DNA from: Deltaproteobacteria bacterium
GTDB lineage: Bacteria > Desulfobacterota > Syntrophia > Syntrophales > UBA8958
Direction of reading: 5' to 3'
Length of the DNA stretch: 64,000 bases
Assembly (NCBI GenBank): GCA_029561465.1
Contig: JAKQIZ010000078.1
Location: 6,638 to 70,637, forward strand
Shown here in pieces: positions 3,225 through 63,137 of this stretch. The notes beneath the pieces are model-generated. The model was not told the origin of the DNA. It made no database searches and saw only the letters and a list, made by a program, of their open reading frames with translations. The translations under genes were made by a program, and so were the position numbers. Position 1 is the stretch's first letter. Every line of letters starts with the position of its first letter.

Positions 3225-4337
3225 TTATCGTGGCGGTAAAAACTTTTTTTTTATGGCTTCCCTTACCCTTTCGACCGGAATATTTTCGAGACAGCGGCTC
3301 CTCCCACTTCCCTCACATCCTTTCCGATGGCAGGGGGAGCAATCCATTTCCGATGTGACAACCTGGTGTTTATCACCCACGGGGGCCCAGTCCCGCCAGT
3401 CGGAAGGACCATAGATGGTGATCGTCGGCGTCCCCACGGCGGCGGCGATATGAGGGGCGGCGCTGTCCACACCTACGTGGAGGCGGCTTAAACTCAACAG
3501 GGCCGCCAGTTCCCCCAGCGTTGTCTCCCCCGCCAGATTGAACAACACTCCGGAAGTTGTCTTCACCAGTTCCTCCGCCCGGGCGCGCTCCCCCGCCGCA
3601 CCGACAAGGACGGAAATCAGTCCGTATTCCCGCCCCAGCCAGGCGGCGATTTCCGACCAGCGCTCCAGAGGCCACTCTTTATAAGCCCAGCGGGAAAAAG
3701 GGCTGATGGTGACGAATCCCCGGGGACCACCGTTTTTACCCTCGCCCTCCGCCAGTATATCCCGGGCGGCAAGGGCATCCTTCATGTGATCTACGGCCGT
3801 CGGGGAAAGAGCGAGCCGCGGCGTCGTCTCCGGGGTGGGGATGCCGAATTGCCTGACGATCCGGAGCGTTTGCTCACTGGCCCCCAGACGGACGCGGATG
3901 TTTTCATTGGTGGGATAGACCAGATGGGTAAACAAGCGGTTGCGATACCAGGGAGCGGTCGCGGCCCACAGCGACGCCCGGTACGGGGCGCCCGTCCACC
4001 GGGCCATAAAGGCCCCTCGTTCGTCGGAACGAAGATCGAAAACGAGCCCGAAGCGGACCTTGCGGATCCGGACGAGAAAAGGGATCTGCCTCATCAGGCG
4101 TTCCACAATATTTCCCGGGTATCTCTCGACCTCGAAAATCCCCGTAATGGCCGGATCGGCCTCCAAAAGAGACCCGATGCCTTTCCGGACTAAAAGAAAT
4201 ATTTCCGCCCGGGGCAGGGCGGCGCACACCGCCTGGAAGGCGGGAAGAGACCAGACGACGTCACCGATATCTCCCAACTGGATGACGAGGACATTACGGA
4301 GCTTGCCCGGAAGCGAAAAGCTTTCGCCGATGATCAT
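3225..4337 (-). CDS. glycosyltransferase family 9 (heptosyltransferase-like); last gene of the long minus-strand array
   Basis: VLVIQLGDIGDVVWSLPAF N-terminal motif. HVGVDSAAPHIAAAVGTPTITIYGPSD and CSPC near the C-terminus. ATGA overlap with the upstream gene at 4334..4337. Confidence 0.85.
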   Translation of the reverse strand: MIIGESFSLPGKLRNVLVIQLGDIGDVVWSLPAFQAVCAALPRAEIFLLVRKGIGSLLEADPAITGIFEVERYPGNIVERLMRQIPFLVRIRKVRFGLVFDLRSDERGAFMARWTGAPYRASLWAATAPWYRNRLFTHLVYPTNENIRVRLGASEQTLRIVRQFGIPTPETTPRLALSPTAVDHMKDALAARDILAEGEGKNGGPRGFVTISPFSRWAYKEWPLERWSEIAAWLGREYGLISVLVGAAGERARAEELVKTTSGVLFNLAGETTLGELAALLSLSRLHVGVDSAAPHIAAAVGTPTITIYGPSDWRDWAPVGDKHQVVTSEMDCSPCHRKGCEGSGRSRCLENIPVERVREAIKKKFLPPR

Positions 4338-6181
4338 TGCGGGGTGTACTCGGGGACGATGCCGCGGAGTTTCTCCTTGATGGCCCCGGCGTCATAGGTA
4401 TCGGCCACGGCGATCAGGGCGTCGATTTCGTCAGCGAGGAGCCGATAATCGCCCTGGTTCCCCTGGATCACCTTGATCTTTTCATGGGCGGTAGGCATTA
4501 TCCCTTCACCCACGGTGATCAGCTCCTCGAAAAGCTTCTCGCCGGGACGCAGGCCGATGTACTCGATAGGGATGTCCCGCTCCGGCTCCAAGCCGTGGAG
4601 ACGGATCACTTCCCGGGCCATAGCGGCGATCCTCACCGGTTTGCCCATATCAAGGATGAAGATCTCCCCGCCCTGTCCCATGGCCCCGGCCTGGAGAATC
4701 AACTGGGCCGCTTCGGGGATGCTCATGAAATAACGGGTCACCTCCGGGTGGGTAACCGTCACCGGCTTACCCTGACTGATCTGCTGCTGAAAAATCGGGA
4801 CGACGGAGCCGGAACTGCCCAGGACGTTGCCGAACCGTACCGAAACGAAACGGGTCGCCGAATGTCCCGTCAGCGTTGCCAAAAGCATCTCCGCCACCCG
4901 CTTTGCCGCCCCCATGACATTGGTGGGACGCACCGCCTTGTCCGTGGATACCAGGACAAAGCGTTCCGCCCCTGCCGCCATGGCCGCTGAGGCAAGATTG
5001 CGGGTGCCGGCGACGTTGTTGTAAATCGTCTCCCGGGGGTGCAGTTCCTGGAGAGGGACATGTTTGTACGCCGCCGCGTGAAAAACCACCTCGGGACGAA
5101 AGGACTCCATGGTTATCCGGACCGCCGCCGGATCGCGGATGTCCGTAAGATAGGTCTCGACGGGGATGTGGGGAAAATACTGGCGCTGCGTCATCTCGAT
5201 CTGGAAGAGGTTGAATTCGCTGAAATCCAGGAGACCGACCCCGGCCGGGTGAAACTGGCAGACCTGTCGGACCAGTTCGCTGCCGATGGATCCCCCGGCC
5301 CCGGTGATCAGGATGCGCTTACCCTCATAGGATACCCGCAGCAATTCTCTTTCGAGATGCACCTCCTCCCGGCCCAGGATATCCTCGATCCGGACCTCCC
5401 GCAGGGCCTTCACCGACACCTTACCGTCGATCAACTCGCCGATGCTGGGCATGGTCCGGAAACGCTTGCCCGTTCCTTCACAAAAGCGCACGATCCGGCG
5501 CATCTGCTCCCCCCGGGCCGAGGGAATGGCGATGAGGATCTCGTCGAAATCCTCCGGGAGGGTACCGATATCCTCCACCTTGCCTATCACCGCGACGCCA
5601 TGGATGGCCTTGCCCTGTTTGATGGGATCGTCATCGAGAAATCCCAGGGGATGCAATTTCAAACCGGGGTTTTCCAATATCTCCCGGACGGCCTTTTCCC
5701 CCGCGGCGCCGGCACCGATGATGAGGAGGCGTTTGTCTTGCTTCCCTTTTTTCGCCAAGAGCCAGAATGTACCGATATTGTTCGTCAACGCCAGCCGGAC
5801 GCCGATCCGGACGCCGCCGACAAAAAGGAGGGTCAGAAGCCAGTCGATGATGAAGGCGGCCCGGGAGTATCCCCGAAAATGATAGATGTACAGGACGGCC
5901 AAAACGAGGATCAGAGAGGAAACCACCGTGGCCTTGAGGACGTTTTTCATGTCTTCCAGGCTCGTGTAGCGCCACATCCCTCGGTAGAGGCCGAAAAGGG
6001 TGAAGCAGAGCAGCTTCATGGCCACGAGATAGGGCAGGATATGGATGATCCGCCGCCATTCGAAGTCCGGCAACTGCCCTTCGTACCGCAGGAGATAGGC
6101 ACAGATATAGGATGCCGCCACGAGGGCGGCATCGATGAGAAGCATGTAATAAAAATGCTTGTTTTGGATGAGCTTCTTCAT
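4334..6181 (-). CDS. membrane-anchored nucleotide-sugar 4,6-dehydratase (CapD/PglF/WbpM family)
   Basis: N-terminal hydrophobic helices, two Rossmann motifs (LLIIGAGAAGE and ILITGAGGSIGSEL), AAAYKHVP (YxxxK). The 615-aa architecture is typical of PglF/WbpM. Confidence 0.9.
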   Translation of the reverse strand: MKKLIQNKHFYYMLLIDAALVAASYICAYLLRYEGQLPDFEWRRIIHILPYLVAMKLLCFTLFGLYRGMWRYTSLEDMKNVLKATVVSSLILVLAVLYIYHFRGYSRAAFIIDWLLTLLFVGGVRIGVRLALTNNIGTFWLLAKKGKQDKRLLIIGAGAAGEKAVREILENPGLKLHPLGFLDDDPIKQGKAIHGVAVIGKVEDIGTLPEDFDEILIAIPSARGEQMRRIVRFCEGTGKRFRTMPSIGELIDGKVSVKALREVRIEDILGREEVHLERELLRVSYEGKRILITGAGGSIGSELVRQVCQFHPAGVGLLDFSEFNLFQIEMTQRQYFPHIPVETYLTDIRDPAAVRITMESFRPEVVFHAAAYKHVPLQELHPRETIYNNVAGTRNLASAAMAAGAERFVLVSTDKAVRPTNVMGAAKRVAEMLLATLTGHSATRFVSVRFGNVLGSSGSVVPIFQQQISQGKPVTVTHPEVTRYFMSIPEAAQLILQAGAMGQGGEIFILDMGKPVRIAAMAREVIRLHGLEPERDIPIEYIGLRPGEKLFEELITVGEGIMPTAHEKIKVIQGNQGDYRLLADEIDALIAVADTYDAGAIKEKLRGIVPEYTPQ

Positions 6182-7335
6182 TTCAAGGTCCGGAGCCGGG
6201 CCGCCGCTTCCGCGAGGACGGGGTCGTCTTTGGCGAAGCAGAAACGGGCCAGGTCCTCGCCGCCGCCTTCATGATAGAAGGCGCTGCCGGGAACGGCGGC
6301 CACGCCGGTCTCCCGCAGGAGATGCATGGCCCGTTCCTTGCTGTTTCCCCCGGGGAGCCGGGAAATATCCGCCAGGACATAGTAGGCCCCTTGCGGGACC
6401 AGGGGGGGCAGGCCGGCATCGGTCAGGGCCCGGCAGATCATATCCCGTTTATAGAGATACTGCCGGGCCAATCCTTCGTAATAATCTTCGCCCAGGGCGT
6501 TGAGACCCCGGGCCACCCCGATCTGCAGGGGCGCCGGCGCGCAGACATAAACCAGATCGTTGAAATGACCGATGGTCTGAAGCCAGCGGGCATCGCCCAG
6601 GGCATAGCCGACGCGCCAGCCGGTGATACTGAAGGTCTTCGACAGCCCGGAAATCGTGATGGTCCTTTCCCCCAGCCCCGGCAGGAGGGCCGGCGGCAGA
6701 TGGCGGCAGCCGTCGTAGAGAAAATGCTCGTAGATCTCGTCGGTAAAGACAAACAGATCGTGGTGGACGGCAAAGGCGGCGATCGTTTGCAGCTCCTCGG
6801 CGGTAAAGACCTTGCCGGAGGGGTTGGCGGGCGTATTGACGATGATGGCCCGGGTGCGGGAAGTCCATGCCCGCTCCAGGGATTCCCGCTGAAAGGACCA
6901 GTCCGGGGGGCACAGGGGGACATAGACCGGCGTCGCCCCCGTTGCCACCAGCGTGCTGATGTGATACCCGTAAAAGGGTTCGAATATGATGACCTCATCG
7001 CCGGGATTCAAAAGGGCCAGGCAGGTGCAGTACAGGGCCCCCGTCGCGCCGGCACTGACGACGATCTCCCCTTCGGGGTCCACCGCCATGCCGGTGAAAC
7101 GGCGCTGCTTGTCCGCGATGGCCTGGCGCAGCTCCACCAGGCCGTCGTACCGGGTATAGGTGTTAATCCCCTGATCCATCGCCTCCCGGGCGCCCTGGCG
7201 AACCACCGGAGGAACCTCCGTATCGCAGACCCCCTGGGAGAGGTTGATCCCGCCGACGCGATCGCATTCGATGGACATATTGCGGATCTCCGACTGGAGA
7301 ACCCAGGCGTGGCGTTCACTCAATCTTAAATTCAT
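6178..7335 (-). CDS. class I/II PLP-dependent (amino-acid type) aminotransferase
   Basis: NTPANPSGKVF and SGLSKTFSITGWRVGY (PLP-lysine motif). 385 aa. ATGA overlap with the downstream gene (6178..6181). Confidence 0.85.
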   Translation of the reverse strand: MNLRLSERHAWVLQSEIRNMSIECDRVGGINLSQGVCDTEVPPVVRQGAREAMDQGINTYTRYDGLVELRQAIADKQRRFTGMAVDPEGEIVVSAGATGALYCTCLALLNPGDEVIIFEPFYGYHISTLVATGATPVYVPLCPPDWSFQRESLERAWTSRTRAIIVNTPANPSGKVFTAEELQTIAAFAVHHDLFVFTDEIYEHFLYDGCRHLPPALLPGLGERTITISGLSKTFSITGWRVGYALGDARWLQTIGHFNDLVYVCAPAPLQIGVARGLNALGEDYYEGLARQYLYKRDMICRALTDAGLPPLVPQGAYYVLADISRLPGGNSKERAMHLLRETGVAAVPGSAFYHEGGGEDLARFCFAKDDPVLAEAAARLRTLK

Positions 7336-7356: not shown

Positions 7357-8703
7357 TCAAGTCTTCCCGTAAAATGACCGGACCACCGTGATGACGTAAT
7401 CCACCTCGTCGTCGGCAATCTCCACGTTCATGGGCAGGGAGCAGACCTCCCGGCTCAAGGCCTCCGTTTCGGGAAAATCCCGATCCTCCAGCTTCAGGGC
7501 CTCGTGACGGTAATAAGGCTTGCGGAACTGGGTCAGCACCTCGACACCCCGGGACTTGAGGTACTCGGAAAAATCGTTCCCCTGCCGGGAGCGCACCGTA
7601 TAGTTCTGATAGACATGATCCCGGCGGGGATCGTCGTAATGGGGCAGGAGGAGATCGGAAAGATCGGACAGGGCGGCGCGGTACCTCGCGGCGATGGCCT
7701 GGCGCCGGATTATCCATTGGGGGAGATAGCGCAGCTTCACGTCGAGAAAGGCCGCCTGCAGGTTGTCCAGGAGGCAGGTAAAACCGTGGCCGTGGTATTC
7801 CCCGGTCTGCCGGTCTTCACCGTTGTAGCGCATCCGGGTGGCAAACAGGGCGATCTCGGGATTGTTGGTGGTGATGGCCCCGCCGTCGCCGTAACCGCCG
7901 AGGATCTTGAAGGGATAGAAACTCCAGCAGCCCGTCAGGCCCCAGGAACCCGCCCGGCCCCATCCGTCGCTGATTTTTTCCGGCGCCGGGGACACCGACC
8001 CAGTGACCGTCGCCTTCGGAGCTGCCGCACCGATCGCCACCGCACCTGTTGCTTCGCCAAAAAGGTCCCCGCTCTGTTTTGCCAATTTCTTCCTTCTCCG
8101 CCTCGCTTCGTGATGCGCCCCTGTTTCCTCCTGCCTGTCTCCTCCTGCCTGTTGTTGTCTGTGGACTGTATTCGTCCTTTCCATACCGGCCCCCAGGCTC
8201 TGGCAGGCGTCCTCGATGACCACGAGGCGGTATCGCTCCGCCAGTTCCATGACCCGCGCCATATCGGCCATGTAGCCGCTGAGATGGACGGGAATTATGG
8301 CCTTGATCCGTCCTTCGCCATCCCGGTCCGCCGTCGCCAGGAGTTCCTCCACCCGGTCGCAGTCGATGTTGAAATCCTTCCCCACATCCACCAGGACCGG
8401 CCGGGCGCCGACATTGACCACCGCCGAAGCCGTGGCCACAAAGGTATGGGCGGGAACGATCACCGCGTCGCCGGCGCCGATCCCCGCCGCCCGGAGGGAC
8501 ATGTGGAGGGCGTCATACCCGCTGTTCAGACCCACGGCGTACTTAGTCCCCACAAAGGCCGCGAGATTTTCCTCGAACCGTTTCAATTGCCCCCGGTCGA
8601 TCAGATCGCCCTTGCTCATGACTTCATAATAAGCGGCGTCCAGCTCTTCCTTGATCATCCCGTAGAGCTTCGCCGGCTCCACGAACTTCACTTGTCTATC
8701 CAT
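7357..8703 (-). CDS. DegT/DnrJ/EryC1/StrS-family sugar aminotransferase carrying a ~72-78-aa internal insertion
   Basis: Family blocks GLNSGYDALH, IIPVHLSG, VIEDACQSLGAG ... GSWGLTGCWSFYPFKILG (catalytic Lys). They are interrupted by a low-complexity stretch at aa ~173-250. Confidence 0.85.
   Translation of the reverse strand: MDRQVKFVEPAKLYGMIKEELDAAYYEVMSKGDLIDRGQLKRFEENLAAFVGTKYAVGLNSGYDALHMSLRAAGIGAGDAVIVPAHTFVATASAVVNVGARPVLVDVGKDFNIDCDRVEELLATADRDGEGRIKAIIPVHLSGYMADMARVMELAERYRLVVIEDACQSLGAGMERTNTVHRQQQAGGDRQEETGAHHEARRRRKKLAKQSGDLFGEATGAVAIGAAAPKATVTGSVSPAPEKISDGWGRAGSWGLTGCWSFYPFKILGGYGDGGAITTNNPEIALFATRMRYNGEDRQTGEYHGHGFTCLLDNLQAAFLDVKLRYLPQWIIRRQAIAARYRAALSDLSDLLLPHYDDPRRDHVYQNYTVRSRQGNDFSEYLKSRGVEVLTQFRKPYYRHEALKLEDRDFPETEALSREVCSLPMNVEIADDEVDYVITVVRSFYGKT
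8126..8152. repeat. tandem duplication TCCTCCTGCCTGT (13 nt, 14-nt period) inside the DegT insertion
   Basis: Identical 13-mers at 8126..8138 and 8140..8152, read directly from the sequence. Confidence 0.9.
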
Positions 8704-8825: not shown

Positions 8826-9806
8826 TCAGAGGATACTCCGAACGGCCTGGATGATGTCCGTGCTGTTACGGTAATAGGCATTCTCCAGGGCGGTGCTGGC
8901 GGGGGCCGGACAATCGGGCAGGGTGACCCGTGCCACGGGTGCCCGCAGGGCCCCGAAGGCCCTCTCCGCCGCGAGGGCGGAAATTTCCGCCGCCACGCCA
9001 AAGGACCGCCAGCCGCCGTCGGCAACGACGAGCCGGCCGGTTTTCTTTACCGAGGCCAGCAGGGTTTCTCCATCCAGGGGCTTTATCGTCCGGAGATCGA
9101 TTATTTCCGCCGCGATCCCGGCCTCGGCCAACAGTTCCGATGCCTGGAGGGCCTCCTGAACCATAAACGACGAAGCCGCCACGGTTACATCCGTCCCCTC
9201 CCGGACAATTCTGGCCCGGCCGATCTCCACGGTATAGATCTCTTCCGGCACCGGTTCCTCAAGCCGATACAGCCAGCGGTCGTCGATGAAGACCACCGGA
9301 TTCGACTCCCGGATCGCCGCCACCATCAATCCCTTGGCGTCATAGGGGGTGGCGGGCATGACCACCTTCAACCCCGGCGCCTGGGCGAACATGCCGTGCA
9401 GGGCCTGGGAGTGCTGGGCCGCCTGTTCGCCGCCCCGGTTGAGAATCCCCCAGAAGACAACGGGTACGGGCAGGCTGCCGCCGCTCATGTAATACCAGTT
9501 CGCCGCTTCGTTGATGATGGGATCGAAGGCATAAAACATGAAATCCATACGGGGATGGACGACGACGGGCCGCATCCCCGCCAGGGCCGCCCCGACCGCG
9601 GCGCCGGTCATGGCGTTTTCGGATACCGGGGTGTCGATGACCCGTTCGTCGCCGAAGCGCTCCCGCAAGCCCTGAGCGGTGTTGCCCACATACCAGGGGC
9701 TTTTCACCCCCTGGCCGATGAGAAATACCGCGGGGTCCGCCGCCATCGTCTGATGGAGGGCTTCATTTATCGCCAGGCTGTAACTCAGGATTCTATGCGA
9801 AGACAT
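8826..9806 (-). CDS. TPP-dependent 2-oxoacid dehydrogenase E1 component, beta subunit (transketolase-like)
   Basis: LIGQGV, DTPVSENAMTGAAVGAALAGMRPVV and a transketolase C-terminal-like tail. ATG 9806 (MSSHRILSY) is chosen and overlaps the E1-alpha stop by 14 nt. Confidence 0.85.
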   Translation of the reverse strand: MSSHRILSYSLAINEALHQTMAADPAVFLIGQGVKSPWYVGNTAQGLRERFGDERVIDTPVSENAMTGAAVGAALAGMRPVVVHPRMDFMFYAFDPIINEAANWYYMSGGSLPVPVVFWGILNRGGEQAAQHSQALHGMFAQAPGLKVVMPATPYDAKGLMVAAIRESNPVVFIDDRWLYRLEEPVPEEIYTVEIGRARIVREGTDVTVAASSFMVQEALQASELLAEAGIAAEIIDLRTIKPLDGETLLASVKKTGRLVVADGGWRSFGVAAEISALAAERAFGALRAPVARVTLPDCPAPASTALENAYYRNSTDIIQAVRSIL

Positions 9807-10770
9807 ATCTTTCCAGCTCCTCTGTCTTGGGATGGGCGCCGGCTCTGGCAAAAGCGAACGCCTCTTCTACCTCCGCTTCAACTTCCGCCCTTATTCCGTC
9901 CAATTCCCCGGAAGAAAAAAGCCCCCCCGCCAGAAGATAATCGCGCAGCAGTATCAGCGGATCCTTTTTCATCCAGATGTCTATTTCCTCCGGGGGACGG
10001 ATATCGGTATGCTCCCCCTGGATATTGTCATCCGGGCCGACATGGCCTCGATAACGATAGGTCAAAAACTCCAGAAACACGGGACCTGCGCCACGACGGC
10101 ACTTTTCCGCCGCCGCGGTTGCCGCGTCGTAAACGGCCAGCACGTCGTTGCCTTCCACCTGCCGGCTTTCGATACCGAAGGGTGCCGCGATTTCAAAGAT
10201 ATCCCGATCCACTCGACATTCCCGGACCGGCATGTGGGTGGCATAGTAATTGTTTTCACAAACGAAAAGGATCGGCAGCTTCTTCAGGGCAGCAAAGTTC
10301 ATGCTTTCGTAAAGCACCCCCTCCCCCGTGGCCCCGTCACCGAAAAACGTCACGGCCACACGGCCGTCCCTCCTGATGACCGACGCCAGGGCCGCTCCCA
10401 GGGCCAGGGAGATCGTCCCCGCAACGATCGGCGCCGCCCCCAGCATGCCCACTTCCGGGGCGATGAGGTGCATGGATCCCCCGCGTCCCCGGGAACATCC
10501 CTCCTCCCGGCAGAAGATCTCCGCCGCCATCTTCTCCATGGAACCGCCCTTGGCCAGATAATGCCCGTGGGAGCGGTGGTTCCCGAAGACATAATCCCCA
10601 TCGGTCAGGGCCGCGCAGACACCCACGGCGACCCCTTCCTCTCCGCTGTACAGATGGCAGGGGCAGCGAATTTCGCCGCTGAGGATCGGCGCCACAAAGG
10701 TCTCCTCACAGAGGCGAATCCGCAGCATCCGACGGTAAAAATCTTTCAAGAGTTCACGCGAATATTTCAC
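9793..10770 (-). CDS. TPP-dependent 2-oxoacid dehydrogenase E1 component, alpha subunit
   Basis: TPP-binding motif GDGATGEGVLYESMNFAALKKLPILFVCENN. GTG start at 10770, preceded by GGAGG. Confidence 0.85.
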   Translation of the reverse strand: MKYSRELLKDFYRRMLRIRLCEETFVAPILSGEIRCPCHLYSGEEGVAVGVCAALTDGDYVFGNHRSHGHYLAKGGSMEKMAAEIFCREEGCSRGRGGSMHLIAPEVGMLGAAPIVAGTISLALGAALASVIRRDGRVAVTFFGDGATGEGVLYESMNFAALKKLPILFVCENNYYATHMPVRECRVDRDIFEIAAPFGIESRQVEGNDVLAVYDAATAAAEKCRRGAGPVFLEFLTYRYRGHVGPDDNIQGEHTDIRPPEEIDIWMKKDPLILLRDYLLAGGLFSSGELDGIRAEVEAEVEEAFAFARAGAHPKTEELERYVFA

Positions 10771-10798: not shown

Positions 10799-11431
10799 TC
10801 ATCTCAGGCCCCTTCTCATTTCCCGCACCGCCTGGCTTTCCGGTTGAACAACCGCCCGCAGGGTCAGGAAGATGATCTTCAGGTCCATCCAGAAAGATCG
10901 CTCCCTAACATATTTAATCTGTAATTTCAACTTTGTCGGTCTGATCAACTCCATATATGCCTGCTCCGGATCCGCGGCCCCGGCCAGGACCGCCCCCTCG
11001 TCGGCGTTCCAGATGGAGGCCCAATCGGTGATCCCGGGACGGATGGAAAGGATACCAAGCTCTTCCCCGGTAAACATATCCGTATAGTGTTTTACTTCCG
11101 GACGCGGTCCGACGATGCTCATTTCACCCCGAAAAACATTTATCAGTTGCGGCAGTTCATCGATCTTGTACTTGCGGATGAATCTGCCGGTGCGGGTTAT
11201 ACGGTGGTCGTCGGCGGCCGTCGAAGAGGCCCCGCGCTTCTCCGCATCCACCACCATGGTCCTAAATTTGTATATCCGGAACGGCCGGCCGTTTTTCCCC
11301 GTCCTCGCGCCCCGATAGAACACCGGCCCGCTATCTTCCCCCTTGATCATCACCGCGACCAGACACATCAAAGGGCTGAACACCACAAGGAGCAGGGAGG
11401 AGACGATAATGTCGAAGCCGCGTTTAATCAT
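10799..11431 (-). CDS. small monotopic initiating phosphoglycosyltransferase (bacterial sugar transferase, PglC-like)
   Basis: Single N-terminal hydrophobic helix followed by the KFRTM, DELPQL and SIVGPRPE motifs. 210 aa. Confidence 0.9.
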   Translation of the reverse strand: MIKRGFDIIVSSLLLVVFSPLMCLVAVMIKGEDSGPVFYRGARTGKNGRPFRIYKFRTMVVDAEKRGASSTAADDHRITRTGRFIRKYKIDELPQLINVFRGEMSIVGPRPEVKHYTDMFTGEELGILSIRPGITDWASIWNADEGAVLAGAADPEQAYMELIRPTKLKLQIKYVRERSFWMDLKIIFLTLRAVVQPESQAVREMRRGLR

Positions 11432-12243
11432 GTTCGTCCGTTGGTCGCCACGGCATAGATTATCTTGTGATCGCGATCAGGCCGGACAGCGGAAATGGCA
11501 ACCGGCGGTTCATAGTCGGTCATCCCCTCCTGCAGTTGCGCCGGCAATGCCCGGAGCGGTCCCAGAAAAAGACGCTTGAGATAGGTACGGGCGGCCAGAC
11601 TGCCGGGGATGAGATTCAGACGGACGGCGATCCGTTTTAACGCCGAGACAACCATTTGCAGGCGGCTTGGTTCGGGGATGGAAAATCCTCCATACAGAAC
11701 AACGGACGAAAAATCTCTCCTCAAAAGCTCGTAGAGCTCCGGAACGGAAAAATAGCGGTGTGTATAAGGCGAGGGGTGGAAATCCGCCCAGTCTTTATTG
11801 ACGGTACCGATAATCAACCGGCCGTTGCGGTTCAGCACCCGTTTTGCCTCCGTGACGAAAAGTTCCGGCTTGGCGAGATAATAGATTGCCTCGAATAAGA
11901 GCAGGAGGTCAAAGCTGCCGTCGGGAAATGTCAACTCATGGGCATCCAGCCAGATTATCTCCGGAGTCGCCGCAGATTCTTCACCCCTGGCCCAGTCACG
12001 ATAAATTCCTTTCGCAATCTCCAGATTTACCTCGTCGATGTCGCCCCCCACTACCCGCCTCGCGGAACACGCCAGGTAGCCCAACCCGATGCCGGCGCCG
12101 CAGGCCACCTCCAGGACGCTGGCCGCCCGGGCATAGTCAGCGGCAAAGCGATAGCGGTGATAGATACGTTCCAACTGTTCCCGGGTGGCCTTAAGGCCGG
12201 GTTTTTCCGTGACGGTGTGAAAAGATGAACCGGATGCCTTCAT
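11428..12243 (-). CDS. class I SAM-dependent methyltransferase
   Basis: Motif I LEVACGAGIGLGYLA. ATGA overlaps at both ends (11428..11431, 12240..12243). Confidence 0.8.
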   Translation of the reverse strand: MKASGSSFHTVTEKPGLKATREQLERIYHRYRFAADYARAASVLEVACGAGIGLGYLACSARRVVGGDIDEVNLEIAKGIYRDWARGEESAATPEIIWLDAHELTFPDGSFDLLLLFEAIYYLAKPELFVTEAKRVLNRNGRLIIGTVNKDWADFHPSPYTHRYFSVPELYELLRRDFSSVVLYGGFSIPEPSRLQMVVSALKRIAVRLNLIPGSLAARTYLKRLFLGPLRALPAQLQEGMTDYEPPVAISAVRPDRDHKIIYAVATNGRT

Positions 12244-17134: not shown

Positions 17135-17677
17135 TCAGGAAGAGAACTCCTGCCACTTTTCATTGACAAAACCGTACAACGCCGCCGTCGACTGTTCGAT
17201 AGTCTCGATGCGGGAATCGATTGTCAGGTCGGGAGAATCCGGCGGCTCGTAAATATTGGAGGGAGAAAAACCGATGAGGTTGTTCAGCTTGTTTTCCCGG
17301 GCCAGTTTGTATAGCCCCTTGACGTCGCGCCGCATGACGGTGTCAAGATCGGCGGCGAAGAATATCTCATAAAAACGGTCGCCCAGAAGAGAACGGGCAT
17401 GCGCCCGAGATGATTGGTAAGGGGAGATGATGGGAACCAGGATGATATCGTAACCGCCGCTCGCTTCCAGACAAAGATCCGCGATCAGCCGGTTGTTTTC
17501 GATTATATCCGCCACTGAGAATCCGAGCTGGATGTGCAGCCGGTTCCGGACATCATCGCCGTCCAGGATGAGCACCGTCCTGCCGGCTGCCTCCAAACGG
17601 CTTTTGACGGCGGTGGCGACGGTGGTCTTTCCCGAACCGGAAAGGCCGGTGAACCAAAACACGAGCGCCGTTTTCAT
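17135..17677 (-). CDS. cysC: adenylyl-sulfate (APS) kinase
   Basis: P-loop FTGLSGSGKTT, LDGDDVR, 180 aa. ATG 17677 forms an ATGA overlap with the upstream stop. The longer ORF start at 17854 is rejected. Confidence 0.9.
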   Translation of the reverse strand: MKTALVFWFTGLSGSGKTTVATAVKSRLEAAGRTVLILDGDDVRNRLHIQLGFSVADIIENNRLIADLCLEASGGYDIILVPIISPYQSSRAHARSLLGDRFYEIFFAADLDTVMRRDVKGLYKLARENKLNNLIGFSPSNIYEPPDSPDLTIDSRIETIEQSTAALYGFVNEKWQEFSS

Positions 17678-19941
17678 GCCACGAACACTTCCTTCCCCTC
17701 CCGCGCCTCCCGGATGATGAGCTCCGAAATCTCCTTGCGCATGAACCACTCCGGAGGGCGCTTTCCCCTGGCAAGCATTTTTCGGCCGGCCGTACCGCTG
17801 ATGTTGAGTAGATGGTCGTCGCCATGCCGGCATTGTTCCACATATTCGTGGCATGCCTCACAGTAATGCTGGGTAGGGAAAAACAGCGGCACGATCCCGA
17901 GATCACCGACGCGTTCGAAAAGTCGCTCCACGTCCCCGGGTTGGTAATAGTCCCCCACCCCGGTATGATCCCTGCCGACAATGAAATGACTGCAACCAAA
18001 ATTCTTTCGACACAGGGCCGTAAAAACAGCCTCGCGGGGGCCGGCGTAGCGGGAATAATTCTGAAACGCCCCGATCATGACCTTTCCGGGCGGATAGTAT
18101 TTTTGGATCATGAGCTCATAGCCTCTGATGATGACGTCGAAGTTGTAATCCCCCTTTTTCTTGGGACCGGCGACGGGGTGGGCGAAGAGGCCGTCGCAAT
18201 GGGTCCGCTCCAGGGCCAGCCTTTGGATATGCTCGTGGGCGCAATGGATTACGTTACGGGTATGGAAGCCGACCACCTTGCTCCAACCCCGGTGCGCGAA
18301 GATCGTCCGTACCTGCCGGGGCGTGAGTTCGTAATGTTTGTATGGGGAAGGCAATCTCCGGACCAGTTGCACCGGTCCCCCTAAGAACCATTCGCCCCGT
18401 TGGTACAAAAGCGCCACCCCGGGGTGATTGCGGTCCGTGACCCCAAAGGTATCCCTGGCCGTCTGTTCCAGGTCCGGTTTGAAGATCTGTTGGATGTCCA
18501 TGGTGGCATAGATTTCCTTGGTGCCTTTGAGCCGCAGGGCGACCTTATCCCCGGCACGAAGCTTCCCGGCCATTTTCCCGGGTACCTGCAATACTATTGG
18601 TAAAGGCCATATCACCCCGCTGGGAAGGCGATATTCCCTCAATACCGTCTCCATTTCCTCCTTGGTCATAAATCCCGTCAAGGGGGAAAAGGTGCCCAGG
18701 GCAATTTGCTCGGCGCTCATCAGGACCGATACATCGACATCCAGCGGGATTAATCCGGCCATTTCTTCCGGCGCCGGGTTTTCCTGCCAGGCATTCACCA
18801 GTCTGCCGCCGTGCGGTTCGATCAGCAGCAAGGAGCCCTTGCCGTCTAGATCCGGAAGGAAGGTATTGTTCAGGTGCTCATCATACTGTTGGATCATCTT
18901 GCGGACCATCATGGCACAATGCACCGGATAGGACCCGATGGCCGTTTCCGCGGCCAGAACCAAGCCATCCGCCCCGTCGCACAGGGTATTGAAAATGTCG
19001 TTTACTTCGGCCCGGGTGGGGTTTGATGATTTGACCATGGACTCCAAGAGGTTGGTGGCCACGTAAACCTTAACCCCCACCTTTTTTGCCCTGCTGATAA
19101 TCAGTTTTTGCATCCGCGGGATCATGTCGATGGGCACCTGCCGGGACAGATCGCCCCGATCTATGAGGAGGGCATCCGATTTTTCAGCAATCTCTTTCAG
19201 GTTACGAAAGCCTGCCGTCGATTCGATTTTCGAGATGACACGGGTGTCCTCACCCACATGGCGGCGAATCACATCCACATCCGCACCGCGATTGGCGAAC
19301 GACAGCGCCGCGTGCCTGAGGCCGTATCGCTGTCCTATCTCCAGGGCCTGCCGGTCCTTCTCCGTCAGAACCGGCAACAGGACGTCGCGATTCAGGATCG
19401 TGACGGCCTTGTTCGGACCGACCCGGCCGCCGATCAGTATCTTCAGCCGGAGGCCCGGAGCGGAATTCTCGACGATCTGGGCCAGAACGGAGTTGAAATC
19501 GATGCTGACCAGGTCTCCCTCCACAAAGAAGGAGGCTATATCGGGAGGATAGAAGCTGAGCTGCGGGGCATCGCTTCTTCCCCCGCCGCCGGGGATCAAG
19601 AGCATCTCGTTCTCCGGCAGGTGCAGGGTCTCCCCCGCCATGTCGCCGGTCCTTATCTGCGCCCCTTCGGTATCCAGGCAGATGGGCAAAGATGTCCGCT
19701 CCTGAATGAAACCGATGATTCCCGGTAAATCATCAATCTTGGTGTGGGACAGGTTGATCCGCAGCAGATCCACACCGAGTTCGGCAAGCCGCGCCAGGGT
19801 GTAATCATTCAGGGAAGCCGGTCCCAAGGTGCAGAGAATCTCTTTTTTGTCTTTATGGTCTTTATGGTCTTTATGGTCTTTCTTCAAATCTTCCTTCCTT
19901 TCAAAGGTCAGACGGCCTCGTGACGCCCACTGCCCCGACAA
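17674..19941 (-). CDS. fusion protein: pyruvate-kinase-like barrel domain (aa ~34-352) plus ATP sulfurylase / sulfate adenylyltransferase (aa ~371-755)
   Basis: PK motifs ILCTLGPAS, LRINLSH, ISKIES, LIDRGDL, NPTRAEVND, VLAAETA. Sulfurylase motifs LIEPHGG, HTRNVIHCAHE, HPVAGPKKKGD, GRDHTGVG. The start is TTG 19941. An alternative TTG at 19887 is preceded by AGGAAGGAAG. Confidence 0.85.
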   Translation of the reverse strand: MSGQWASRGRLTFERKEDLKKDHKDHKDHKDKKEILCTLGPASLNDYTLARLAELGVDLLRINLSHTKIDDLPGIIGFIQERTSLPICLDTEGAQIRTGDMAGETLHLPENEMLLIPGGGGRSDAPQLSFYPPDIASFFVEGDLVSIDFNSVLAQIVENSAPGLRLKILIGGRVGPNKAVTILNRDVLLPVLTEKDRQALEIGQRYGLRHAALSFANRGADVDVIRRHVGEDTRVISKIESTAGFRNLKEIAEKSDALLIDRGDLSRQVPIDMIPRMQKLIISRAKKVGVKVYVATNLLESMVKSSNPTRAEVNDIFNTLCDGADGLVLAAETAIGSYPVHCAMMVRKMIQQYDEHLNNTFLPDLDGKGSLLLIEPHGGRLVNAWQENPAPEEMAGLIPLDVDVSVLMSAEQIALGTFSPLTGFMTKEEMETVLREYRLPSGVIWPLPIVLQVPGKMAGKLRAGDKVALRLKGTKEIYATMDIQQIFKPDLEQTARDTFGVTDRNHPGVALLYQRGEWFLGGPVQLVRRLPSPYKHYELTPRQVRTIFAHRGWSKVVGFHTRNVIHCAHEHIQRLALERTHCDGLFAHPVAGPKKKGDYNFDVIIRGYELMIQKYYPPGKVMIGAFQNYSRYAGPREAVFTALCRKNFGCSHFIVGRDHTGVGDYYQPGDVERLFERVGDLGIVPLFFPTQHYCEACHEYVEQCRHGDDHLLNISGTAGRKMLARGKRPPEWFMRKEISELIIREAREGKEVFVA
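19851..19877 (-). repeat. 3 x 9-bp perfect tandem repeat (CTTTATGGT) encoding (KDH)3 in the N-terminal tail of the fusion protein
   Basis: Read directly from the sequence. The protein track shows KDHKDHKDHKDKK. Confidence 0.95.
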
Positions 19942-30123: not shown

Positions 30124-31023
30124 TCATTGCCGGCCCGAACCGATTTCCCGATAAACCTCCTCGATAAGTTCGAGGATGCCCTGGCCGATGTCGATAAACA
30201 CATTCGATACCATTTTTTTCCCCTCCCGGGGCGTGAAGCGGTAGGGGGTAATGTCGTAATGGACGGGATCTCTCCCTTCTTTCTTGAACTCTATCCGGAC
30301 ATGTTCATTCATTATCTCCTGAATCATTCTCAGCAATTCCCGGGAGTTCAACGCATGGGTCCCCGTGAGAATCAAGCGCTGATTGATGAATTCAGCGGCC
30401 AGGGCGGCAATGCTCAATTGCGCCGCGTCTTTGACATGAATATACTCCCGCCTTTCCTCACCCGTCCCGGGATAGACGATTACCCCGTCCCGCACCGCCT
30501 GGGTTATATAACGTTTCATCCCGTTCCATTCCTGGGAGCGAGGACCGTAGAGAGATCCGTAGCGCAGAATCGTGTATTTCAGCGCGTACTGTTCGTAGTA
30601 TGCCTCGAGCATATGCTCCACCGTCTGTTTGCTTACCCGGTAAAACGAGCCGTGCTGGCTGTAAACATAAATCGTGGAGGCATACATGAGCCGCTCGATG
30701 CCCGCCTGGACGCAGGCATCAAAGACATTCGCGCTGCCGATGATATTCTTCTCGAGGGTTTCCCGGGGCGATTCCACGGACTTGCCGATATCGGCGATGC
30801 CGGCCAGATGATAGACGTAATGAGCCCCCGCCAGCGCTTTCCGCACCTCCCCCTCGTCCAGGACATTGCCGACGATCATCTCCTGTTCGGGCCGCAGCCA
30901 CGGCGAAGGACGCACATCGAATACCGTTACGCGGTATCCCCGATCGGTCAAGGCATCGGCGAGATGACTTCCGAGAAAGCCGGACCCACCGATAACGACG
31001 ACGTTCTTTTTACTCATAAGCAT
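30124..31023 (-). CDS. NAD-dependent epimerase/dehydratase family protein
   Basis: VVVIGGSGFLGSHLADAL Rossmann motif and YRVSK (YxxxK). An alternative ATG at 31017 forms an ATGA overlap with the upstream stop. Confidence 0.8.
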   Translation of the reverse strand: MLMSKKNVVVIGGSGFLGSHLADALTDRGYRVTVFDVRPSPWLRPEQEMIVGNVLDEGEVRKALAGAHYVYHLAGIADIGKSVESPRETLEKNIIGSANVFDACVQAGIERLMYASTIYVYSQHGSFYRVSKQTVEHMLEAYYEQYALKYTILRYGSLYGPRSQEWNGMKRYITQAVRDGVIVYPGTGEERREYIHVKDAAQLSIAALAAEFINQRLILTGTHALNSRELLRMIQEIMNEHVRIEFKKEGRDPVHYDITPYRFTPREGKKMVSNVFIDIGQGILELIEEVYREIGSGRQ

Positions 31024-31940
31024 CCGGTCTCCTTCAAACCACGATAAAGGTTGGCCAGGGCCCGCGACTCCATTTCCGCCCTGGCTTCCCGGGCATAGGA
31101 ACCGATATGGGGCGTCAATAAAACATTGTCGAACGCCAGCAGGGGCCCCGCATACGGTTCCTGCTCAAAAACATCCAGACAGGCGAAACCGACCTGACCG
31201 GAGGCTAAATGCCGCACCAGTGCCCTTTCATCAACCAACGTCCCCCGGGCCGTATTGATCAGGATGACCCCCCGGCGGCATGACTTCAGTTCCCCATCCC
31301 CCATGATCACCTCCCGGCCGCCGGCATGGAGCGAGATGATCTCGGCCCTTTCCATAAGTTCCGCCCGGGATACCGGACCGGCCCAGGTCACCGCGGCTTG
31401 GGGGCATGGATCGTAATAAATCACCTCCGCGCCGAAGGTCCTGGCCAACGTCCCCACCCGTTGACCGATGGCACCGAAACCGATGATCCCCAGCAGCTTC
31501 CCGGCCAGCAAAGAGCCCATCTGCTTTTGCCAGCGCGCCTCCCGGAGCCGGCGGTCATGACCGGCGAGATTGCGCAAGGCCGAAAGGATCATGCCCAAGG
31601 TCAATTCCGCCACGGCCTGGGTAAGGACGTGCTCCGTGCGGTAAACCCTGATGCCCAAGGCGGCGGCGGCGGCGAGATCCACATTGTCCCAGCCCACGCC
31701 GACCCTGGAAATCACCCGCAGATGATCCTTGGCGGCGCCCAGAACGGCGCCATCGATCCTCTCCGTGCCCGCCAGGATGCCCACGGGCCGGTGTCGATCA
31801 AGGAGTCCGACCAGTTCATCCCCCGTGAGCACCCGCCCGTAAGGATTCAAAACGTACGGAAATCCCCGGTCTTTCAAGTCGTCCAGGAGTTCCGGGGTCC
31901 CGGCGGCAAACGACGAGGTCGTGATCAGTATCGTTCCCAT
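31014..31940 (-). CDS. D-isomer-specific 2-hydroxyacid dehydrogenase (phosphoglycerate-dehydrogenase-like)
   Basis: GIIGFGAIGQRVG NAD motif. INTARG and TPHIGSY catalytic-region motifs. Confidence 0.85.
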   Translation of the reverse strand: MGTILITTSSFAAGTPELLDDLKDRGFPYVLNPYGRVLTGDELVGLLDRHRPVGILAGTERIDGAVLGAAKDHLRVISRVGVGWDNVDLAAAAALGIRVYRTEHVLTQAVAELTLGMILSALRNLAGHDRRLREARWQKQMGSLLAGKLLGIIGFGAIGQRVGTLARTFGAEVIYYDPCPQAAVTWAGPVSRAELMERAEIISLHAGGREVIMGDGELKSCRRGVILINTARGTLVDERALVRHLASGQVGFACLDVFEQEPYAGPLLAFDNVLLTPHIGSYAREARAEMESRALANLYRGLKETGCL

Positions 31941-47440: not shown

Positions 47441-48238
47441 TTATTGCCGGCCACTGAATCTGTTCCTCAGGAACTCCTGGTTTTGCCGCTCCGCGTCGGT
47501 CATGGTCTTTTCGTCCGTTCCCAGCATGGAAACGATCATCCGCTTGTATTCCACCAGCATCTTCAGCTCCAGGGGATCGGCGGAAAGGATATGATCCGTG
47601 CCGAAATAGGTCTTCGAAAGGGTAATGTGCTTCTCGATGACCGCCGCCCCCCGGGCCACCGCCACCAGGGGCGCCACGATGCCCAAGGTATGATCGGAGT
47701 AACCAACCTGGCACCGGTAACGCTCCCGGAGGTAGTCCATGGTCCGCATGTTGACCCGTTCATCCGGGAGGGGATATTCCGATACACAATGGAGGAGATA
47801 GAGGTCCACTTTTTTTAGCATTGCCACCGCCGCGTCGATCTCCGCCACGGAGGACATCCCGGTGGACAGGAAGACCTTGTCCGCCCGGTCGTTGACCAGT
47901 TTGAGGAGATCATGATCGGTGATATGAAAGGAGGCGATCTTCATGTCCCGCACCCCCAAAGAAAAGAGGTCCGCCGCCTTGGCGGCGTCCCAGGGGGTGC
48001 AGAGAAAGGCGATGCCCCGCTGGCGGGCTATCCCGTAGAGATAGCGCAACTGGTCCATGTCGAGCTGCACCTTCCGGAACCATTCCTTTTCCGGATCGCT
48101 GTCGGCACAGGCCTCGGCGTCATAGTACTGGAACTTCACATAGTCGGCTCCCGCCTCCCGGGAGACATCGATCATCTTCCGGGCGAGATCCATGTCCCCC
48201 AGGTGATTTTCCCCCGCTTCCGCAATGATGATGCACAT
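47441..48238 (-). CDS. NeuB/SpsE-family PEP-dependent sugar synthase homologue lacking the C-terminal SAF domain
   Basis: MCIIIAEAGENHLGDMDLARKMIDVSREAGADYVKFQ and GYSDHTLG motifs. Only 265 aa from ATG 48238. Confidence 0.8.
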   Translation of the reverse strand: MCIIIAEAGENHLGDMDLARKMIDVSREAGADYVKFQYYDAEACADSDPEKEWFRKVQLDMDQLRYLYGIARQRGIAFLCTPWDAAKAADLFSLGVRDMKIASFHITDHDLLKLVNDRADKVFLSTGMSSVAEIDAAVAMLKKVDLYLLHCVSEYPLPDERVNMRTMDYLRERYRCQVGYSDHTLGIVAPLVAVARGAAVIEKHITLSKTYFGTDHILSADPLELKMLVEYKRMIVSMLGTDEKTMTDAERQNQEFLRNRFSGRQ

Positions 48239-48254
48239 TTTCCTATCTACCCCC

Positions 48255-49226
48255 TCAGCCGAAGATTTTTCGCAACCGGACGACGGCCTCGTATTGGGAG
48301 ACATTATGCCCATGATCGCCGTTTTCCGGATCGATTTCCATGATCAGGGTCTCATCGCCCCGCACCTTTCCCAGCAGTTCCGCAAAATCCACATTGCCCC
48401 GACCGATGGGGAGACCCTCCGTGTAGAGATATTTGTCCATTTCGTCAAGGCCATCATCCGGCCGCCAGCGGCAGGCGTCGGAAACGTGAAAATATTCGAT
48501 GAAACCATTAACGAAGTCCGCCGCCGTCAGATACTCCGCCTGGGCAAGGTCTTCGGCGTAGATGTTGCCGAAGCGTACATCGCCGGCCAAATGCCCGTGG
48601 CGTTGCCGCATGTTGAACATGTTGGCCGACAGGACGGCATGGGCCGTATCGAGGAGAAAGCCCACCGATCCCAATCCCAGCTTCCCGACCGCTTCCGCCA
48701 GTATGGCCATATCCCAGGGAAAACAGTGATCCAGGGGGCTTACCGCATATTCCGCCCCCAATCCCGGCGGCAGCCACACGAATCCGTAGTTTTCCAGGAG
48801 GATCCTCACTCCCTTTGGCGCGGCGAGATCGTTCCACCGGGCCACCCGCTCGATGAATCCCCGCCGGGCCTCTTGCTTGGGGATATCGCGGTTAAATCCG
48901 TAACAGCAGTGCATGACCAGTTCGGCGGCGCCGATCCCCTCCGTAAAGGCCAAAACCTTCGTAAGTTTATCCGGATCATCGTCGATGGCGTCAAAGAGGT
49001 AACCTGTCTCGACATCCATGATGGGGAAATGGACGATAAACCGGCAGGCCTCGCCAAGCCGCCGCACCCCGGACATAAAAGCCGCCGCTTCCGGATGGAA
49101 GACATCCCTGGCGCCGAACAGATGGAGTTCGATGACCGGCGGGAGTCCCAGACGCCGAAAGCTCTCCCGGCGGTCCTGCAACTGGGAGGGAAAGACCGCC
49201 GCCTTCATACCGTATTTAAAAGCCAA
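48255..49226 (-). CDS. xylose-isomerase-like TIM-barrel protein (sugar phosphate isomerase/epimerase family)
   Basis: The overall pattern (LLDTAH, LLENYG, HVSD) resembles the AP-endonuclease-2/xylose-isomerase-like TIM family. Start is TTG 49226 or ATG 49208. Confidence 0.7.
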   Translation of the reverse strand: MAFKYGMKAAVFPSQLQDRRESFRRLGLPPVIELHLFGARDVFHPEAAAFMSGVRRLGEACRFIVHFPIMDVETGYLFDAIDDDPDKLTKVLAFTEGIGAAELVMHCCYGFNRDIPKQEARRGFIERVARWNDLAAPKGVRILLENYGFVWLPPGLGAEYAVSPLDHCFPWDMAILAEAVGKLGLGSVGFLLDTAHAVLSANMFNMRQRHGHLAGDVRFGNIYAEDLAQAEYLTAADFVNGFIEYFHVSDACRWRPDDGLDEMDKYLYTEGLPIGRGNVDFAELLGKVRGDETLIMEIDPENGDHGHNVSQYEAVVRLRKIFG

Positions 49227-62550: not shown

Positions 62551-63137
62551 CGTTTTTCCGGATAGATGCCGCCGGCCTTGATGAAACTTCCGGGCGGTAT
62601 GGTCGTGTATTCTTTCGATACGGCACAACTTCCGTAAAATGTGCCGCTGCCCATCGTTACGCCCCCGTTGACCACCGCCCCGGTGGCGATATGGCAATGA
62701 TCGTCGATAACCGCGTCATGTTCGATCAGGGCCCGGGTGTTGACGATGCAATTTTTTCCCACCCGCGCCCCGGCATTGACCAGGGCGTGATGCATGACGA
62801 TCGTCCCCGCCCCCACCCGGGCATGGGGAGAGACATAGGCCAGGGGGGACCGGATGACCGGGAAATCCGCCCCCATGTCCTCCAGCTCCCCAAACAGTTC
62901 CATTCTCCGCCGCGGAGAACGGATATGACCCAGCGTAATCAGCACCTGGGGATACAGTTTGATCAATGCGGGCAGATCCCCATCGGAACCGATCACCGGG
63001 TAACCGAGAACGGTTTGATTCCTTTTTTCCAATACATCCACAATCCCGGCCACGACAAAGCGGTCTTCCCGTTCGATCACATCGATGCAGGACCGGCAGT
63101 GGCCGCCGCCGCCGATGAGGAGGATTTGTTTCTTCAT
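62547..63137 (-). CDS. neuD: hexapeptide-repeat sugar N-acetyltransferase (NeuD/PglD/LegH-like)
   Basis: ILLIGGGGHCRSCIDVI N-terminal Rossmann-like motif plus left-handed beta-helix repeats. ATG 63137 forms an ATGA overlap. Confidence 0.85.
   Translation of the reverse strand: MKKQILLIGGGGHCRSCIDVIEREDRFVVAGIVDVLEKRNQTVLGYPVIGSDGDLPALIKLYPQVLITLGHIRSPRRRMELFGELEDMGADFPVIRSPLAYVSPHARVGAGTIVMHHALVNAGARVGKNCIVNTRALIEHDAVIDDHCHIATGAVVNGGVTMGSGTFYGSCAVSKEYTTIPPGSFIKAGGIYPEKR

Follow-up and report, generated by a model that had tools for sequence, protein, structure and literature searches.

Why would an operon for a cell-surface glycan carry the E1 component of a 2-oxoacid dehydrogenase without its partners? 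The question is raised by two overlapping genes in a 64-kb stretch of contig JAKQIZ010000078.1, from a Deltaproteobacteria bacterium of the Syntrophales lineage; the whole stretch is called the window below. The genes encode the alpha and beta subunits of a thiamin diphosphate (ThDP)-dependent E1, and no lipoyl-bearing acyltransferase (E2) or dihydrolipoamide dehydrogenase (E3) accompanies them. Judged from sequence and gene context, the pair most likely equips the glycan's first sugar with a small carbon branch. The pair and its immediate operon are composed as follows.

9793..10770, minus strand: E1 alpha, the ThDP (diphosphate)-binding subunit, 325 aa; PF00676 E1_dh, E=5e-70
10249..10341, minus strand: ThDP-binding motif GDGATGEG...CENN, E1 alpha residues 144-174, read from the translation
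8826..9806, minus strand: E1 beta, transketolase-like, 326 aa; PF02779 Transket_pyr, 4e-33, and PF02780 Transketolase_C, 1.5e-36
10799..11431, minus strand: PglC-like small monotopic phosphoglycosyl transferase, the initiating enzyme; PF02397 Bac_transf, E=7e-63
7357..8703, minus strand: DegT-family pyridoxal phosphate (PLP) enzyme of "type A" (see below); PF01041, E=6e-83, in two stretches
6178..7335, minus strand: class I/II aminotransferase, similar to kynurenine aminotransferase (KAT), glutamine transaminase, YbdL and DapC; PF00155, E=5e-65
4334..6181, minus strand: PglF/WbpM-like membrane-anchored UDP-N-acetylhexosamine (UDP-HexNAc) 4,6-dehydratase; PF02719 Polysacc_synt_2, E=6e-111, with CoA_binding_3
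11428..12243, minus strand: class I S-adenosylmethionine (SAM) methyltransferase, a common companion of the cassette; PF08241
3225..4337, minus strand: GT9 glycosyltransferase, translationally coupled to PglF; PF01075

E1 alpha starts with a GTG codon preceded by a GGAGG site. The mechanical open reading frame (ORF) of E1 beta begins at a TTG (9851); ATG 9806 is the likely start, because a GGAG lies 9 nt upstream of it and homologues begin there. With this start the two genes overlap by 14 nt. Start and stop codons overlap or almost abut from the AsnB-like amidotransferase gene (15291) through GT9 (3225), and the 122 nt that separate E1 beta from DegT contain no terminator-like site. The genes upstream of the pair encode the methyltransferase, a GT4 glycosyltransferase and the AsnB-like protein. 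The GT9 enzyme probably adds the next sugar after the first one.

The preliminary description of this DNA had reported the overlapping pair with its GDGATGEG...CENN motif, set between the PglC-like transferase and the DegT, class I aminotransferase and PglF-like genes. Coordinates, Pfam matches and motif position all agree with it. The absence of E2 and E3 from the window, which it had also reported, was upheld by tblastn with seven E2 queries (E<=1e-2) and five E3 queries (E<=1e-3) from other loci, and no member of the lipoyl, 2-oxoacid_dh or Pyr_redox families was detected among the approximately 50 window ORFs scanned with Pfam. The same scan revealed no hexapeptide acyltransferase of the PglD type.

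A total of 80 loci were gathered from species-representative genomes, and more were added by retrieving database proteins through exact look-up. The clade survey used the 20 loci with an E1 alpha at least 59% identical to the window protein. These belong to Syntrophales, Bacteroidales, Planctomycetia, Acidobacteriota and Omnitrophota. The family comprises at least 120 clusters: the best 120 cluster representatives (90% identity clusters) are all at least 66% identical to the window E1 alpha, and the named ones among them are from Syntrophales, Bacteroidales, Thermodesulfobacteriota and Omnitrophota metagenome-assembled genomes. PglC adjoins the E1 pair in 20/20 clade loci, and a PglF-like dehydratase was found in every clade locus with a long enough contig. 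DegT and the methyltransferase are present in most of these loci and the class I aminotransferase in many. The methyltransferase gene adjoins PglC or E1 in L003, L005, L006, L081-L085, L091 and L093, and the PglF-GT9 order of the window recurs in L081 and L083. In all 20 loci, the 8-10 kb on either side of the pair are free of E2 and E3, while an E2 gene directly follows E1 beta in 24 more distant loci.

A neighbour-joining tree was built from concatenated alpha and beta sequences of 72 loci (646 columns). The PglC-linked pairs form a single clade (100/100 bootstraps), whose members share 60-100% identity with each other and no more than 52% with anything else in the tree, and the E2-linked pairs are placed elsewhere in the tree. 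The E1 alpha of an Acinetobacter acetoin operon (lipA-E1 alpha-E1 beta-E2-lpdA) shares 41.8% identity with that of the window, like other outsiders. A plasmid collection contained no close relative of the pair, all matches being below 60% identity; it gave one sugar-operon example, from Azospirillum, and a classical acetoin operon as a control. Thus, the view that the pair does not group with housekeeping or acetoin-type E1 and that its relatives have no adjacent E2 or E3 is borne out, and the suggested survey of glycan loci for E1 pairs near pglF and pglC homologues returned a consistent association.

These data bear on the simplest explanation, namely that the pair is a conventional E1 of a pyruvate, acetoin or branched-chain complex whose E2 and E3 are encoded elsewhere, and that its position in a glycan operon is incidental. 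The closest solved structures are indeed pyruvate dehydrogenase (PDH) E1 enzymes from human and Geobacillus, with human PDH E1 alpha (3e-54) and E1 beta (2e-74) as the best PDB matches. E1 beta passes the NCBIfam PDH-E1-beta cutoff (338 vs 321 bits), which is that of a subfamily model only, whereas E1 alpha scores under the cutoff of the PDH E1 alpha equivalog model TIGR03182 (310.9 vs 393.85 bits). An incidental position is also at odds with the same placement in 20 loci from several phyla and with a clade that is separated from all E2-linked pairs.

The active site provides a further distinction. With PDH, branched-chain and acetoin dehydrogenase E1 the pair shares approximately 40% identity, the fold, the ThDP motif and the residues of ThDP chemistry, which include the cofactor-activating beta Glu63 (TPVSE), beta His132 (AAQHSQ) and alpha His243. 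Their equivalents in Geobacillus stearothermophilus are beta Glu 59, His beta 128 and His alpha 271. The kept histidines agree with a conventional E1. The surroundings of these residues, including the inner and outer loops at the entrance to the active site, are changed, and the changes are invariant within the clade.

9994..10050, minus strand: remodelled outer loop with catalytic His243, RGHVGPDDNIQGEHTDIRP, from the alignment of 72 loci
Alpha, near residue 37: R-[CT]-P-x-H in the clade, G-F-x-H in E2-linked pairs
Alpha, inner loop: ENN[LY]Y[AS]TH in the clade, ENNYYxMG in E2-linked pairs
Alpha, outer loop: GHVGPDDN[IV]QGxHTDIRP in the clade, 6 residues longer; shorter in every E2-linked pair compared
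Beta, near residue 37: KSPWYVG in the clade, xYGG in E2-linked pairs
Beta, before His132: FWGxxNRGGEQAAQHSQ in the clade, VIRxxxGxG in E2-linked pairs

In the window E1 alpha, R-C-P-x-H occupies residues 35-39 and ENNYYATH residues 172-179. The position of G. stearothermophilus I206 alpha in the inner loop is Thr, followed by His, in the clade and Ile or Met in E2-linked pairs. The outer-loop signature is present in 115 of the 120 best database matches. In the G. stearothermophilus enzyme, the inner and outer loops gate lipoyl-domain recognition (PMC2663715). A charge reversal was found in E1 beta, where Arg288 of the window protein aligns with G. stearothermophilus Glu285 and human Asp289. 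A Lys or Arg occupies this position in 18/18 clade members, and an Asp or Glu in 21 of 23 E2-linked pairs. We take the acidic residue to contact the basic subunit-binding domain of E2; the open-access literature gave no confirmation of this role. Of six features that define a complex-forming E1, the fold and the catalytic residues are therefore present, while adjacent E2/E3 genes, the acidic residue with its presumed docking role, the loops and an E1 alpha score above the cutoff are lacking.

Two variants of the cassette and a set of gene fusions provide evidence on what the pair does instead. In the reductase variant (L082 and L011), the order is PglC-aldo-keto reductase (AKR)-E1 alpha-E1 beta-PglF, without any aminotransferase. 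In the transketolase variant (L092, L093 and L094), a split transketolase, encoded as an N-half and a C-half, takes the place of E1 alpha/beta in cassettes that are otherwise alike (PglC, methyltransferase, type-A DegT, and class I aminotransferase or PglF). E1 and transketolase are alike in generating a carbanion on ThDP that is then added to a carbonyl, and to our knowledge a transketolase cannot serve E2. The exchange thus points to ThDP carbanion transfer, not lipoyl acylation, as the shared function. Protein P0134 is a fusion of E1 beta with DegT; its beta half has the clade motifs and its context is methyltransferase-PglC-E1 alpha-[E1 beta-DegT]. Transketolase C-half-DegT fusions (P0132 and P0219) and a DegT-transketolase N-half fusion (P0144) were also found. 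DegT is fused to the class I aminotransferase in L081 and, independently, in P0121, and to the methyltransferase in P0225. These fusions link the ThDP enzyme and DegT as putative pathway neighbours. The DegT fusion and the transketolase replacement are difficult to reconcile with a conventional E1, and we consider that explanation very improbable.

The same fusions would also fit a different chemistry, because they imply that E1 beta and DegT act on one intermediate pool. Since PglF, DegT and PglC are present without a PglD-type acetyltransferase, the E1 pair could fill the slot of PglD: DegT would make a 4-amino sugar whose amine attacks an acyl-ThDP formed by E1 or transketolase, e.g., through a phosphoketolase-like dehydration of dihydroxyethyl-ThDP. 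The product would be an N-acylated, bacillosamine-like sugar with no C-C branch. However, the two loci of the reductase variant have no aminotransferase to make the amine, yet keep E1 alpha/beta with identical active-site motifs. Neither E1 nor transketolase has a redox cofactor that could act as the oxidant, and no dehydration chemistry is known for them. The window DegT is not an orthologue of PglE or PseC either. In the PDB it is closest to sugar 3-aminotransferases and 7B0D (7B0D, DesV, QdtB and WbpE), and PglE is matched at 5e-22 only. N-acylation in this manner appears quite unlikely.

The two aminotransferases differ in their probable substrates. The window DegT keeps the PLP lysine (FYPFK), which rules out a ColD/E1-type 3-dehydratase. 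A tight subfamily, here called type A, comprises the DegT proteins that lie beside the class I aminotransferase and those joined in one chain to E1 beta or a transketolase half. In type A the motif NGEDRxTGE...T-[AC]-L-L-D-N replaces the usual N-S-R-L-D, and the window protein has T-C-L-L-D. The DegT of cassettes L007, L008 and L085, which lack the class I aminotransferase, is of the ordinary kind. The class I enzyme best matches Rv0858c, KAT and glutamine aminotransferase in the PDB. It keeps the SxSK lysine and a C-terminal carboxylate-binding Arg (LARFCFAK) and therefore should act on free amino and oxo acids. An identity as a C-C ligase of the 8-amino-7-oxononanoate synthase/2-amino-3-ketobutyrate CoA ligase (AONS/KBL) type was ruled out, as the best matches are true aminotransferases and the carboxylate-binding Arg is present. 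The class I enzyme may couple amino-acid deamination to amination by DegT, or may supply a scarce donor such as hydroxypyruvate, which would also fit the transketolase variant.

Free amino acids as substrates also suit a route that leaves the nucleotide sugar untouched by E1. E1 alpha/beta and the aminotransferases could turn 2-oxo acids into a free amino alcohol or amino ketone, by decarboxylation or acyloin formation and subsequent transamination, and another enzyme, e.g., the AsnB-like protein, would attach it later. AsnB-like genes occur nearby in the window, L083 and L094, but AsnB is not conserved in the cassette, unlike PglC and PglF. In P0138 (L095, 100-2268; 722 aa), a D-2-hydroxyacid dehydrogenase is fused with a class I aminotransferase of the cassette type, which is a further point for small-molecule chemistry; the fusion hints that the oxo acid of the aminotransferase is also interconverted with a hydroxy acid, as in glycerate, hydroxypyruvate and serine. 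The minimal variant, on the other hand, consists only of PglC, AKR, E1 alpha/beta and PglF, and DegT-family enzymes, one of which is fused to E1 beta, use nucleotide sugars or inososes. We regard this route as unlikely. The window has a D-2-hydroxyacid dehydrogenase gene of its own at 31014-31940.

The reading that we prefer, with a probability of roughly 60%, is that E1 alpha/beta is a neofunctionalised, E2-independent ThDP carboligase that would attach a C2 or acyl unit to UDP-4-keto-6-deoxy-HexNAc, the product then being transaminated. We infer the reactions, their sequence and the donor from the gene content and its conservation, the separate clade, the altered loops, the fusions and the transketolase exchange described above. 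As predicted from its family, PglF would convert UDP-HexNAc to UDP-2-acetamido-2,6-dideoxy-hexos-4-ulose, whose 4-keto group is the acceptor. An E1 alpha2beta2 tetramer would decarboxylate a 2-oxo acid, probably pyruvate or hydroxypyruvate (giving a C2 unit), to a ThDP-bound carbanion, and this unit would be joined to the C4 carbonyl instead of lipoamide, yielding a 4-C-acyl tertiary alcohol. The side-chain ketone would then be transaminated in the window by the type-A DegT, working with the class I aminotransferase; in the sister loci, the aldo-keto reductase would reduce it instead. The methyltransferase may further decorate the sugar. Finally, PglC would transfer the phosphate of the finished UDP-sugar with its sugar to the polyprenyl phosphate carrier, so that the branched sugar becomes the reducing-end sugar, which GT9 and other glycosyltransferases would extend. 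Shewanellose-type aldol branching was set aside, as that branch is attached through a CH2 nucleophile and not an acyl anion.

The presence of two aminotransferases implies an aminated branch and not a simple acetyl or hydroxyethyl group. A more specific and tentative proposal is that the product is a UDP-2-acetamido-2,6-dideoxy-hexose whose C4 bears a C-linked 1-aminoalkyl branch, a previously undescribed sugar class. The class I aminotransferase would strip an amino acid (e.g., alanine or serine) to its 2-oxo acid, the E1 pair or split transketolase would decarboxylate this and join it to C4, and the type-A DegT would re-aminate the ketone. If true, the net outcome is an amino acid that has lost its carboxyl group and is C-glycosylated onto the glycan's first sugar, and the type-A DegT proteins are a new subfamily that aminates an exocyclic ketone. 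The preliminary description had predicted a branched or acyloin-modified amino sugar as the first, lipid-linked sugar. The conserved cassette, the AKR variant, the transketolase swap and the E1 beta-DegT fusion support such a sugar, for which a two-carbon unit and pyruvate are candidate branch and donor; the aminotransferases had been left unexplained.

Several points weigh against the carboligase proposal. We know of no described glycan with such a branched amino sugar. The pair still has both of the histidines that serve to reductively acylate lipoate, but these also take part in decarboxylation. The search for E2 and E3 covered the 64-kb window and the flanks of the clade loci, and genes elsewhere in the genome are compatible with its result. 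The placement of the clade relative to its sister groups has weak support (13/100 bootstraps), and a sister relation to other sugar-linked E2-less clades was dropped as not robust. Without the canonical N-x-R motif, the type-A DegT may catalyse a reaction other than plain transamination. The class I aminotransferase is missing from L085, L091 and L082, whose E1 active-site motifs are the same. This weakens its candidacy as an obligatory donor supplier, and the enzyme is unlikely to define the E1 donor, because the E1 motifs are identical with and without its gene. Lastly, the cassette is likened by architecture and context to two antibiotic systems, those of AviB1/AviB2 and Pau11/Pau12, which are themselves proposals.

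In avilamycin biosynthesis, AviB1/AviB2 are proposed to install the branch, and in paulomycin biosynthesis the AKR Pau7 reduces a C-4' acetyl branch attributed to the E1-like Pau11/Pau12 (PMC4753412). For both pairs the proposed reaction transfers a C-4 acetyl group from pyruvate to a 4-keto deoxysugar. The preliminary description took such E1-like pairs to be known to attach two-carbon branches; the source goes as far as proposing it. The window cassette resembles both systems in having a split E1 alpha/beta, without E2/E3, in a deoxysugar pathway beside a 4,6-dehydratase. The AKR of L082 and L011 mirrors Pau7, and the window has aminotransferases in its place. The Avi and Pau systems differ in belonging to actinomycete antibiotic pathways and in their dTDP-2,6-dideoxy sugars, which are attached to aglycones. 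The cassette would use a UDP-HexNAc scaffold, pass its product to a PglC-type initiating transferase and usually tailor it with aminotransferases. The two actinomycete pairs in the tree, L072 and L076, are distant from the clade, and L076 adjoins AMP-binding and ketosynthase genes.

A second group of branching enzymes is found in cell-surface glycans. YerE, ErwE and MyGE are single-chain, acetolactate-synthase-like ThDP enzymes that branch CDP-4-keto-3,6-dideoxyglucose in the O-antigen or lipooligosaccharide pathways of yersiniose, erwiniose and caryophyllose (PMC9306805). ThDP-dependent branching of 4-keto sugars is then followed by reductases or transaminases, and co-encoded enzymes can supply the donor 2-oxo acids in YerE-type pathways (PMC9306805). 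The cassette is similar in its proposed reaction on a 4-keto sugar, in its surface-glycan pathway and in the tailoring of the side chain afterwards. It differs in having a heterotetrameric E1 instead of one pyruvate oxidase/acetolactate synthase (POX/ALS) chain, a predicted UDP-6-deoxy-HexNAc acceptor instead of a CDP-3,6-dideoxyhexose, and aminotransferases instead of a reductase. The TPP_enzyme_N/M/C architecture of YerE was not found by Pfam, which detected E1_dh and transketolase domains on two chains instead.

The Campylobacter bacillosamine module (PglF-PglE-PglD-PglC) is similar in that PglF-like and PglC-like genes bracket the cassette and a DegT-family enzyme is present. The cassette differs from it in lacking PglD, in a DegT that is not a PglE orthologue and in the inserted ThDP enzyme and class I aminotransferase. 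A cultured organism, Actinoplanes missouriensis, has the same set of methyltransferase, ThDP enzyme and DegT in the Wzx/Wzy-type wps-2 exopolysaccharide (EPS) cluster (AMIS_56700-56750). There the methyltransferase, split transketolase and DegT are listed at the domain level, with no function proposed (PMC13390465, 2026). This set resembles L092-L094, and its ThDP enzyme is of the transketolase and not the E1 type. Our literature search found no report of E1 pairs in O-antigen, capsule or EPS loci, and no paper that assigns a function to the PglC-E1 alpha/beta-PglF cassette.

ThDP-dependent branching of keto sugars has so far been described for a few antibiotic pathways, where the E1 type is a proposal, and for a few O-antigens with YerE-type enzymes. 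The cassette suggests an uncharacterised family derived from E1, large and well conserved, that is spread over several phyla, mostly in uncultured anaerobes. This family is tied to the reducing-end sugar of surface glycans, can give way to a split transketolase and occurs in fusions with a distinctive DegT subfamily. The sequence signatures could separate complex-forming E1 from carboligase E1, all of which are currently labelled pyruvate/acetoin dehydrogenase E1, and the cassette predicts a new branched amino sugar.

Other E2-less pairs were found in sugar operons at a greater distance. In Omnitrophota and Pirellulales, the order is dehydratase-like short-chain dehydrogenase/reductase (SDR)-E1 alpha-E1 beta-SDR-B12 radical-SAM protein. 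The arrangement in Pelagibacteraceae is DegT-DegT-E1 alpha-E1 beta and that in Anaerolineae is GHMP kinase-SDR-E1 alpha-E1 beta-DegT, while a plasmid of Azospirillum ramasamyi carries oxidoreductase (SDR)-E1 alpha-E1 beta-DegT, also without E2. In a Planktophila locus (L048, 11933-13722), both halves (N and C) of a split transketolase come directly after an E2-less E1 alpha/beta pair, which places two ThDP enzymes in tandem. Some other E1 pairs without a full E2 are adjoined by stand-alone lipoyl-domain-like ORFs (74-88 aa matched), none of which was found in the PglC-linked clade. A short lipoyl ORF and an E1 pair may represent a different minimal system. The three examples are as follows.

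L021, 8562-8780: lipoyl-domain-like ORF beside an E1 pair
L024, 9557-9811: lipoyl-domain-like ORF beside an E1 pair
L033, 2557-2787: lipoyl-domain-like ORF beside an E1 pair

Some cassette genes show unusual structures. The window DegT has an insertion, whose site holds approximately 17 aa in L001 and L087 and nothing in other homologues.

7960-8193, minus strand: 78-aa insertion in DegT, of low complexity, charged and Ala-rich, at a variable loop just before the PLP-lysine strand

In a Planctomycetia cassette (L005, 3463-4663), DegT is shortened to 234 aa and is followed by a gene of the 23S-rRNA-intervening-sequence family (four-helix bundle) and then by the class I aminotransferase. In Omnitrophota (L087/L088, 12694-16978), the PglF-like dehydratase and a response-regulator receiver domain make up one fusion protein of 768 aa. 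Its gene comes after those for a stand-alone receiver and a DegT fragment and before rpoN (sigma-54).

The rest of the window is one very large glycan region with genes for sulfate activation, two NeuB homologues, cytidylyltransferases, several radical-SAM proteins and a flippase. In a 755-aa ORF at 17135-19941 (minus strand), ATP sulfurylase is joined to a pyruvate-kinase barrel and a PUA-like domain; this ORF overlaps one for adenosine 5'-phosphosulfate (APS) kinase. These genes suggest a supply of 3'-phosphoadenosine 5'-phosphosulfate (PAPS) for a sulfated glycan. The pyruvate-kinase/ATP sulfurylase fusion is unusual, and a homologue with 38% identity lies 5 kb upstream of an E2-less E1 pair in L012. 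A second large block of sugar genes (33592-62697) contains the NeuB homologues (47441-48313 and 61492-62697), two CMP-type cytidylyltransferases, an MptE-like protein, four further DegT, two B12-radical-SAM and two SPASM radical-SAM proteins, which points to modified nonulosonic acids.

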